From: Candidatus Electronema halotolerans | Lineage (GTDB): Bacteria > Desulfobacterota > Desulfobulbia > Desulfobulbales > Desulfobulbaceae | DNA length: 32,000 nucleotides | NCBI GenBank assembly: GCA_942493095.1 | Contig: OW818675.1 | Span: 630,001 to 662,000, forward strand | Reading direction: 5' to 3' | In this document: in pieces, positions 14,621 through 15,379 of the stretch | How positions within the stretch are numbered: the stretch's first letter is position 1 | Layout: each line of letters opens with the position of its first letter | Translations under genes and position numbers: made by a program | Notes under the pieces: generated by a model | What the model saw: the letters and a program-made list of their open reading frames with translations, nothing else | Databases searched by the model: none | What the model was told of the DNA's origin: nothing

Positions 14621-15379
14621 ATGGAAATTCATTTCATAATCATTTCAGTTGAACTCATCATTCTGGCTGGAGGATGCCTTGCCTTACGGTTTTACAGACA
14701 GAAAGCATCCAGAACTGAATCAGAAGGTTCTGCCGTCTGGTCAGAGTATATGAATTCGAGAAAATGGGAGGATTTGAGAAGAAAATCACTGCAACGGGCT
14801 GATTACAAATGTGAACTGTGCAGTGCTCCCTATAAAGCGGTTCACCATATCCGCTATCCTAAAAAATACCGAGATGACCATATTGACAATCTGCTTGTTG
14901 TCTGCGAAAGATGTCATGCGAGAATGCACGGAATACGTGATGAGACGATACTGTCAGATGACGGAATGCTCTATTCAGAAGAAGTGCGCACTGGAAGTCG
15001 TGCATACCTGTTTCAGCTAAAAAAATCAGTTGGAAAGAAATATCTTTGTCTCAGCGAATCTGGGAAAAGAGGAACCCGCTGCATTGAGGCGGATGAAGAT
15101 ATTCTCCAGAAATTTACGAAAAACATGAAAAACGGTCTCAGCTCTCTGAAAAACACTGCCGGAATGCAGTTTATGGAGAGAATGTCAGGAAATGACCGCA
15201 CTTATTTTTTTGAAGTGAAGTCAGCAGTCAACGGAAGCAAATATCTCAAAATTACTGAATCAGGAAGAAGAGATAACACAGTCTTTGAACGTGATCATGT
15301 CATAATTTTTGAGGATGAGGCGGAGCTGGTTTCAGTCGGCCTGGACAACACATTAAATTTTATAAACAAAAAAAGATAG
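14621..15379 (+). CDS. Membrane-anchored HNH endonuclease fused to two PUR (Pur-alpha / DUF3276-like) nucleic-acid-binding repeats
   Basis: The N-terminal TM helix is IHFIIISVELIILAGGCLAL. The HNH motif is CELC...VHHI......DNLLVVCERCHARMH (about 14753-14932). Two repeats follow: RTGSRAYLFQLKKSVGKKYLCLSESGKR (about 14969-15145) and GNDRTYFFEVKSAVNGSKYLKITESGRR...DHVIIFEDE (about 15167-15364). They match the bacterial PUR/DUF3276 pattern R.YFFDVK.....YL.ITES......H.I.L..ED. I chose the ATG at 14621. Confidence 0.75.
   Translation: MEIHFIIISVELIILAGGCLALRFYRQKASRTESEGSAVWSEYMNSRKWEDLRRKSLQRADYKCELCSAPYKAVHHIRYPKKYRDDHIDNLLVVCERCHARMHGIRDETILSDDGMLYSEEVRTGSRAYLFQLKKSVGKKYLCLSESGKRGTRCIEADEDILQKFTKNMKNGLSSLKNTAGMQFMERMSGNDRTYFFEVKSAVNGSKYLKITESGRRDNTVFERDHVIIFEDEAELVSVGLDNTLNFINKKR

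Follow-up and report, generated by a model that had tools for sequence, protein, structure and literature searches.

What might a cable bacterium do with an HNH nuclease that appears to be tethered to the membrane and fused to a PUR nucleic-acid-binding domain? The gene that raises this question, here called HNH-PUR, lies in a stretch of 32,000 nucleotides (the window; contig OW818675.1, positions 630,001 to 662,000) of the closed 3.2-Mb genome of the cable bacterium Candidatus (Ca.) Electronema halotolerans, and is not discussed in the paper that describes that genome (bioRxiv 10.1101/2022.10.26.513921). A first-pass annotation, made from the letters of the window, had proposed a protein of three parts (an N-terminal transmembrane (TM) helix, a complete HNH motif, and a tandem pair of PUR repeats) and had suggested that it acts on incoming DNA. 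The three-part architecture was upheld in every test that we ran. We consider it quite probable that the protein is an HNH nuclease anchored in the membrane, with a PUR domain that is functional in binding nucleic acid; that it serves in defence is a tentative suggestion, to which we give somewhat less than an even chance.

The open reading frame (ORF) of 252 amino acids (aa) is confirmed, and its product is identical to a protein on deposit from Ca. E. halotolerans, CAK8713635.1. An alternative upstream start, TTG at 14549, would lengthen the frame; we prefer the ATG at 14621 because the deposited protein has the same 252 aa and because almost all homologues start at the same motif, MEIHF. 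Database labels for the homologues read only 'DUF3276 family protein' or 'HNH nuclease domain-containing protein'.

Pfam recognises the nuclease part as HNH (PF01844; aa 64-103, E 1.5e-4) at 22.3 bits against a cut-off of 21.4, a narrow margin; precomputed Pfam annotation gives the same family for five homologues (P0011-P0013, P0039, P0198), and the top PHROG matches are phage HNH endonuclease families (E 5e-14). Among 29 homologues C64 and C67 never vary, and conservation is 90% or more at H75, H76, N90, C95, C98, H99 and H103; H76, N90 and H99 align with the catalytic histidine, asparagine and histidine of the IscB HNH domain (PDB 9k2z). We infer putative roles for these residues: C64, C67, C95 and C98 as zinc ligands, H76 as general base, N90 as the structural asparagine, and H99 as metal ligand. 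The structural model builds the core from strands 73-76 and 91-94 and helix 96-102, with lower predicted local distance difference test (pLDDT) scores in the loop 79-83. HNH modules are metal-dependent nucleases; the core of this protein appears intact and of the zinc-bound type, and nuclease activity is predicted.

The C-terminal half matches DUF3276 (PF11680) in two stretches, at E 5.8e-10 and 39.8 bits against a cut-off of 23.1, and both families named in the first-pass annotation are thus found above their cut-offs. Aligned with each other by hhalign, repeat I and repeat II match over 61 columns (probability 98.8%, E 1e-16); a control alignment of a PUR repeat with the HNH segment gave no match. 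Repeat II is the closer of the two to bacterial Pur-alpha (BpuR): the single sequence finds Borrelia burgdorferi Pur-alpha (3nm7) in this repeat at E 2.5e-4, and a family profile of the PUR region finds 3nm7 over a whole repeat at E 3.5e-12, and 3n8b at E 2.7e-11. K200 and the invariant aromatic Y208 (K134 and Y141 in repeat I) sit where BpuR has lysine and phenylalanine.

An AlphaFold2 model built on the 29 homologues (mean pLDDT 81; PUR part 85-96) comprises a long N-terminal helix, the beta-beta-alpha core, and two beta-beta-beta-beta-alpha units. Searched against the PDB with Foldseek, the model returned Drosophila and human Pur-alpha repeat I-II structures as its top 13 matches (E 4e-7 to 3e-5), with target template modelling scores (TM-scores) of 0.68-0.79 over 134-145 columns, followed by Borrelia Pur-alpha as a single repeat (30% identity, root-mean-square deviation 1.5-1.8 Å, with 1.6-1.8 Å for 3nm7 on repeat II). 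Because the model and these matches agree, we predict that the two repeats pack into one intramolecular PUR domain, a point that the first-pass annotation had left to modelling. At the level of sequence the family profile reaches only Borrelia Pur-alpha, and no alignment to eukaryotic Pur-alpha was obtained. The PUR domains of Pur-alpha bind single-stranded DNA (ssDNA) and RNA, and unwind short duplexes by means of a base-stacking aromatic residue (PMC4764581); for Borrelia BpuR, nucleic-acid interaction, binding to its own mRNA, and regulation of transcription and translation are reported (PMC3764826, PMC6736767).

The N-terminal segment is strongly hydrophobic (19-residue Kyte-Doolittle mean 2.27 for residues 3-22), with no lysine or arginine before it and four after; nearly every full-length homologue has 0-1 such residues before the segment and 3-6 after. 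In the AlphaFold model a single long helix spans residues 2-44. Applied to this charge bias, the positive-inside rule predicts an uncleaved signal anchor in the N-out/C-in orientation, and all that comes after the helix, HNH and PUR parts alike, would therefore be cytoplasmic.

This combination is rare. A word-indexed search of 5.8 billion proteins returned 34 clusters, all of about 250 aa and all with PF11680, and an exhaustive HMMER search of 1.84 billion representatives returned 13 clusters at E≤1e-30. A pattern-seeded scan of 185,579 species, one genome each, found full-length relatives in six, always as one copy per genome: Ca. Electronema sp. JC, a Desulfobulbaceae metagenome-assembled genome (MAG), Desulfonema magnum, Allochromatium warmingii, Ca. 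Marithrix, and Ca. Thiomargarita nelsonii. These are without exception sulfur-cycle bacteria of sediments, most of them filamentous or giant; the remaining matches of the scan were single-repeat DUF3276 proteins of Bacteroidota. A phage or plasmid origin was considered and rejected, as tblastn searches of 50,697 phage records and 72,556 plasmid records gave HNH-only matches, with the HNH-PUR architecture absent, and a fold search of BFVD gave no model matching both domains. Our literature search found no paper on an HNH-PUR fusion, no paper that links cable bacteria to HNH, and a single paper in which DUF3276 occurs, in keeping with the earlier impression that the fusion is undescribed; in the databases, too, the architecture is rare and carries no assigned function.

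The family does not keep the three-part plan throughout: some members have no TM helix, and others have one PUR repeat only. Proteins of the latter kind, about 200 aa long and with the TM helix and HNH module in place, make up some 25 clusters, and presumably dimerise as BpuR does. The same HNH subtype also occurs without PUR, as the N-terminal part of proteins whose C-terminal regions are of other kinds, Bro-N (8 of 60 scanned) and DnaB_C (2 of 60) among them. The copy in Ca. Thiomargarita nelsonii (L012 10001-10711, on a contig shared with L017) keeps the TM helix and both PUR repeats and has lost the whole HNH core after the CxxC; it reads as a natural nuclease-dead or decaying variant.

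Does the protein belong to a known system? On its sequence it belongs both to the HNH superfamily and to the bacterial PUR/DUF3276 family, and not to SNIPE, Shedu, Zorya (ZorE), Septu (PtuB) or IscB. To SNIPE and Shedu it shows no similarity in sequence. Pfam searched at E up to 10 gives HNH and DUF3276 only, without DUF4041 or GIY-YIG, and the DUF4263 PD-(D/E)XK nuclease has no match in Pfam or PADLOC. Membership of ZorE, PtuB or IscB was rejected, since the similarity is local to HNH and far below the family cut-offs: PADLOC matches to ZorE and PtuB cover aa 37-113 only (E 1.7e-6 to 0.02), and NCBIfam scores, likewise for the HNH segment only, are 14.8 against a cut-off of 600 for ZorE and 33.6 against 175 for IscB. 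The immediate neighbours in the window are an acyltransferase gene and an IS630-type insertion sequence (IS), not ZorAB or PtuA.

One parallel in design is SNIPE, which has an N-out single-pass TM helix, a cytoplasmic DNA-binding domain and a GIY-YIG nuclease, cuts phage DNA during injection, and is highly toxic once the TM helix is removed (Saxton et al., Nature 2026, PMC13190303). Like SNIPE, HNH-PUR is a single protein with an N-terminal TM helix, and here too a periplasmic N-terminus and a cytoplasmic binder and nuclease are predicted; about one third of SNIPE homologues are TM-less, a parallel to the TM-less subclade of this family. The two are nevertheless not homologous: SNIPE pairs DUF4041 with GIY-YIG where HNH-PUR pairs PUR with HNH, its order is reversed (binder, then nuclease), and it contacts ManYZ and tape-measure proteins, with nothing comparable known for HNH-PUR.

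A second parallel lies in the immune nucleases/NTPases Shedu type 1A and Menshen NsnA, which carry sPC4/Whirly-fold modules, from a superfamily that includes PUR, as proposed single-strand sensors; in Shedu, mutation of the binding surface of this module abolishes immunity. The likeness is that of a Whirly/PC4/PUR-superfamily single-strand-binding module fused to a defence effector. Shedu differs in its DUF4263 PD-(D/E)XK nuclease, in an N-terminal sensor that is formed by dimerisation and is not DUF3276, and in the lack of a TM anchor, whereas the PUR domain of HNH-PUR is C-terminal, a true DUF3276 homologue, and predicted to form within one chain.

Single modules have further relatives. BpuR (3nm7/3n8b) shares 30% identity over one repeat and a common TYFF-x-VK...YL-x-I-x-ES core, but it and the Bacteroidota DUF3276 proteins are small, single-repeat, dimerising proteins with no enzymatic domain, in contrast to the HNH-PUR chain, where two repeats are joined to both a nuclease and a membrane anchor. 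Eukaryotic Pur-alpha repeat I-II (5fgp, 3k44, 8cht) resembles the modelled intramolecular two-repeat PUR fold, but at 13-15% identity, and Pur-alpha has a third, dimerising repeat and no nuclease. Phage HNH proteins (phrog_119, phrog_144), IscB, ZorE and PtuB share the beta-beta-alpha-metal core, the CxxC...CxxC zinc ligands and a preceding Y-x-x-Y-L-x-S-x-x-W-x-x-L-R helix, but the matches are limited to the HNH module, and these proteins have neither TM anchor nor PUR. A nuclease with a nucleic-acid-binding or sensor domain and a membrane tether is a known design, in which the HNH-PUR combination is new.

How did the gene come to Electronema, and is it kept? The window and two other Electronema, VV and JC, have one gene order: Uma2, B12-radical S-adenosylmethionine (SAM) protein, lipid-A-type acyltransferase, HNH-PUR. 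Amino-acid identities of VV and JC to the window are 88-90%, 84-89%, 73-75% and 72-74%, respectively. Synonymous divergence (dS) between the window and VV or JC is 0.72-0.84 for HNH-PUR and 0.38-1.06 for its neighbours, and the ratio of nonsynonymous to synonymous divergence (dN/dS) is 0.14-0.20 and 0.10-0.24; by domain the ratio is 0.05-0.32, and all four domains are constrained, the TM segment included. Because the same locus is found in three species, with dS like that of the neighbours and dN/dS of 0.14-0.20, we conclude that the HNH-PUR gene has been inherited vertically and kept functional in Electronema, and is not recent cargo.

Its composition has stayed foreign all the same. The gene is AT-rich, as the first-pass annotation had remarked: its GC content is 0.41 against 0.51 in the 5-kb flanks. 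At third codon positions (GC3; HNH-PUR genes at window 14621-15379, L001 10001-10762 and L013 10001-10750) the three Electronema copies have 0.33-0.39 against 0.70-0.80 in the radical SAM and acyltransferase genes, with Uma2 at 0.52-0.57, and this difference persists over the divergence described above without compositional amelioration. Rare-codon selection, silencing and gene replacement are possible reasons for the persistence.

In the intergenic region upstream (14430-14620), a 180-nt block has 85% identity between the window, VV and JC, more than neutral divergence would lead one to expect, and includes a conserved 5' leader of about 90 nt as well as the promoter-like element (Table 1). 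A consensus scan for sigma-70 promoters and terminators gave nothing on the strand of the HNH-PUR gene; the element TTGACA-17-TATTCA is unlisted there because its -10 hexamer ends in A. A regulatory RNA upstream of the gene was also considered: Rfam gave sub-threshold snoRNA matches only, which we judge to be chance, and no family fits.

Synteny with VV and JC stops just past the HNH-PUR stop codon, and neither the Wzy_C gene nor the second acyltransferase gene, both of which lie 3' of the orthologue in VV and JC, occurs anywhere else in the window. The IS630-type element begins 44 nt past the stop, near the end of synteny; its transposase lies in two frames (helix-turn-helix part 15442-15894, DDE_3 part 15813-16445), a split that could be a programmed frameshift or a pseudogene. 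Some 3.4 kb upstream of HNH-PUR, just before the block that starts with Uma2, is the IS66-family fragment, so that in E. halotolerans the block from Uma2 to HNH-PUR is bracketed by IS remnants. The 'nested IS debris' of the first-pass annotation is thus, downstream, a single bounded element; what remains of the description is the fragment on the other side.

Table 1. Coordinates in the window of the HNH-PUR gene, its parts and nearby features.
Feature	Coordinates	Strand	Basis or remark
Complete coding sequence, 252 aa + stop: TM anchor, HNH, tandem PUR	14621..15379	+	Pfam, homologues, CAK8713635.1
Predicted hydrophobic signal-anchor helix, aa 3-22	14627..14686	+	Kyte-Doolittle; R23, R26, K28, R31 come after
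HNH beta-beta-alpha-metal module, aa 39-105	14735..14935	+	Pfam aa 64-103, IscB 9k2z alignment, conservation, model
PUR repeat I, aa 114-176, four strands + helix	14960..15148	+	DUF3276 stretch; model strands 116-158, helix 159-175
PUR repeat II, aa 183-250, four strands + helix	15167..15370	+	Best DUF3276 stretch, aa 192-251
Promoter-like TTGACA-17 nt-TATTCA	14500..14528	+	Read from sequence; invariant in three Electronema; function inferred
IS630-type element	15423..16471		29-nt inverted repeats, 76% complementary, TA-flanked
IS66-family transposase fragment	10714..11262		C-terminal part of DDE_Tnp_IS66 only
Uma2 gene, putative restriction endonuclease	11423..12085		Matches PADLOC candidate PDC-S03, E 2e-25

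Elsewhere in the window, a low-GC island (8761-10369; 0.32-0.33 against about 0.55) between a ComM/Mg-chelatase-like gene and the IS66 fragment contains two ORFs, of 176 and 362 aa, that overlap each other and are matched by nothing in Pfam or PADLOC, and may be a further piece of foreign cargo. An EgtD-like histidine-specific methyltransferase gene (Methyltransf_33, E 1e-99) occupies 23055-24080, in a stretch of low GC (0.36-0.38). On the reverse strand, a 1,133-aa ORF (19440-22844) ends in 370 aa of cysteine desulfurase (DndA/SspA models, E 1e-153), and its N-terminal 750 aa are without family assignment. A frameshift suspected in the RuvC gene downstream was rejected because RuvC reads through in one frame, and is intact.

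In other hosts the gene has other company. Its GC content is 6-21 points below that of the flanks in all seven loci tested, and the neighbours differ from lineage to lineage, HNH-PUR being elsewhere a solo gene without conserved partner. The small upstream ORFs of five loci, compared with one another and with the window, are unrelated, and there is thus no conserved immunity or antitoxin partner. In Allochromatium the neighbours include HicAB and a DNA methylase; in Desulfonema, HicA, three Uma2 genes (the gene that is syntenic with HNH-PUR in Electronema) and a gene resembling archaeo-eukaryotic primases; in Thiomargarita, an MmeI-type restriction-modification (R-M) system, an AAA_21 and HNH pair, PLD-SNF2 and Fic. 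Of three metagenomic loci, L006 has GmrSD fragments, RNase T2 and AAA_15/21 ATPases, and L010 and L096 have Dam methylase, YoeB, PIN and MmeI-type R-M. In Ca. Marithrix sp. Canyon 246 (L015 6414-12791) the HNH-PUR start at 9923 overlaps the stop of an AAA_27/SMC-like ATPase gene (1,170 aa, 6414-9926), and a Septu-like AAA_15/21 and HNH pair comes next; the arrangement could represent an operon peculiar to this lineage, or a defence island. At the Allochromatium warmingii locus (L003 6025-9606) the phosphoenolpyruvate-utilising enzyme directly upstream of the homologue holds a LAGLIDADG intein, and mobile elements are therefore active there. The claim that the gene sits in a setting typical of defence or selfish cargo needs correcting for Electronema, with its vertical, syntenic and constrained copy; several of the other hosts do have defence-rich neighbourhoods.

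We offer as an overall reading, somewhat short of an even chance, that HNH-PUR is a stand-alone membrane-tethered nuclease directed against single-stranded or unwound foreign nucleic acid. The protein would be a single-pass inner-membrane protein with a very short periplasmic N-terminus and its HNH and PUR parts in the cytoplasm. Its PUR domain would bind single-stranded or locally unwound DNA or RNA and hand it to the adjacent HNH active site, and the anchor would hold the nuclease at the membrane, off the nucleoid and near the entry of foreign nucleic acid. Candidate targets are the DNA of a phage as it is injected, single strands that arrive by conjugation or transformation, or replication intermediates. 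A defence role gains plausibility from the predicted N-out/C-in topology, from the SNIPE and Shedu precedents, and from the defence-rich neighbourhoods of several hosts. Low GC, a patchy distribution over unrelated sulfur-cycle bacteria and a phage-type HNH together form a conflict-gene signature that we count for defence, and the neighbourhoods rich in conflict genes in many hosts are suggestive in the same direction; dN/dS of 0.14-0.20 and the conserved upstream region we count for a functional gene. A more specific version is doubtful: that HNH-PUR is an unrecognised single-gene immunity confined to giant and filamentous sulfur bacteria, which would tell self from non-self by position and strandedness, its nuclease kept at the inner membrane on the cytoplasmic side and its PUR domain capturing single strands or newly unwound DNA on entry, whether by conjugation, transformation, ssDNA phage or phage injection.

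Several observations weigh against a defensive, membrane-tethered nuclease. The Electronema gene sits in a co-directional envelope-biosynthesis cluster, not in a defence island, and contexts in the Desulfobulbaceae MAG and one single-repeat lineage are housekeeping only. No PADLOC system is matched beyond local HNH similarity. Proximity to R-M and toxin-antitoxin (TA) genes is weak evidence because the genomes of large sulfur bacteria are rich in both. The topology follows from charge bias only, and a subclade (P0029-P0032) is without the TM helix. In the K-N-R contact motif of Pur-alpha, finally, N and R appear not to be conserved, their positions being here A, V or N; this mapping is indirect, because no sequence alignment to Drosophila Pur-alpha was obtained.

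Could the protein instead serve the host in a way unrelated to conflict with foreign DNA? It might be a lineage-specific housekeeping or regulatory protein, either a BpuR-like regulator or a membrane-proximal enzyme of repair, recombination or RNA turnover, recruited by cable and other filamentous sulfur bacteria. Synteny in three Electronema, purifying selection like that on the neighbours, the conserved upstream region, one copy per genome and the housekeeping contexts of some lineages all fit such a protein, as does the reported regulation of transcription and translation by Borrelia BpuR (PMC3764826, PMC6736767). We consider this unlikely, given an extremely patchy distribution (six of about 185,000 species), a persistently foreign composition, an HNH of phage type, the lack of any neighbourhood conserved between lineages, and the Thiomargarita copy, where loss of the HNH core implies that the gene is dispensable. 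The protein might also be no entry-site nuclease but a suicide or toxin nuclease of abortive infection or addiction, activated by its sensor: once PUR has bound abnormal ssDNA or RNA, HNH would start to cut the DNA of the cell itself, and the membrane tether and rare codons would serve only to limit basal toxicity. The Whirly-fold domain of Shedu does regulate rather than target its nuclease, GC3 of 0.33-0.39 beside neighbours at 0.70-0.80 fits low expression, TM-less members exist, and TA genes are frequent neighbours. Yet no antitoxin or immunity partner adjoins the gene in a conserved manner, stable vertical inheritance without one argues against constitutive toxicity, and there is no sign of oligomeric switching; we regard such a nuclease as distinctly unlikely.

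If HNH-PUR were a free-standing homing-type HNH gene, domesticated or still selfish, with PUR as its DNA-targeting module, it would be spreading among sediment bacteria that live together; its appearance as a solo low-GC ORF between unrelated genes in each lineage is what one would expect, and phage HNH genes typically have this HNH subtype, which is elsewhere fused to other DNA-binding domains such as Bro-N (8 of 60). This is quite improbable: each genome has one locus, outside any intron or intein, none occurs in the 50,697 phage or 72,556 plasmid records, a conserved membrane anchor fits poorly with homing, and long vertical residence under purifying selection, TM segment included, indicates a benefit to the host. 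The last alternative is a nuclease that faces the periplasm or is secreted, degrading or processing extracellular DNA for uptake or nutrition. EndA and NucA of competent bacteria are membrane-anchored beta-beta-alpha-metal nucleases for extracellular DNA, and HNH-PUR likewise has an N-terminal hydrophobic segment and no second TM helix. But the segment has no positive n-region, a 20-residue h-region and no conserved AxA site, the 3-6 lysines and arginines after the helix predict the opposite orientation, a four-cysteine zinc site would be better suited to the reducing cytoplasm, and competence genes are not among the neighbours at the loci examined, which makes an EndA- or NucA-like role highly improbable.

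We suggest that HNH-PUR matters for the PUR family, as almost no function has been assigned to bacterial PUR (DUF3276) proteins other than Borrelia BpuR, and fusion to a nuclease that looks catalytically intact offers a direct biochemical way to learn what such domains recognise. If the protein does act in defence, it would be a second, unrelated and independently evolved case of the principle seen in SNIPE, by which position at the membrane distinguishes self from non-self; it would give a bacterial PUR domain its first functional role in defence, and would bring HNH enzymes into the range of immune nucleases that carry Whirly/PC4/PUR-fold sensors. If it is a lineage-specific housekeeping nuclease, its value would lie mainly in annotation. 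The gene belongs to a small pool common to cable bacteria, Desulfonema, Thiomargarita, Marithrix and Allochromatium, and so bears on gene flow between uncultured sulfur bacteria of sediments.

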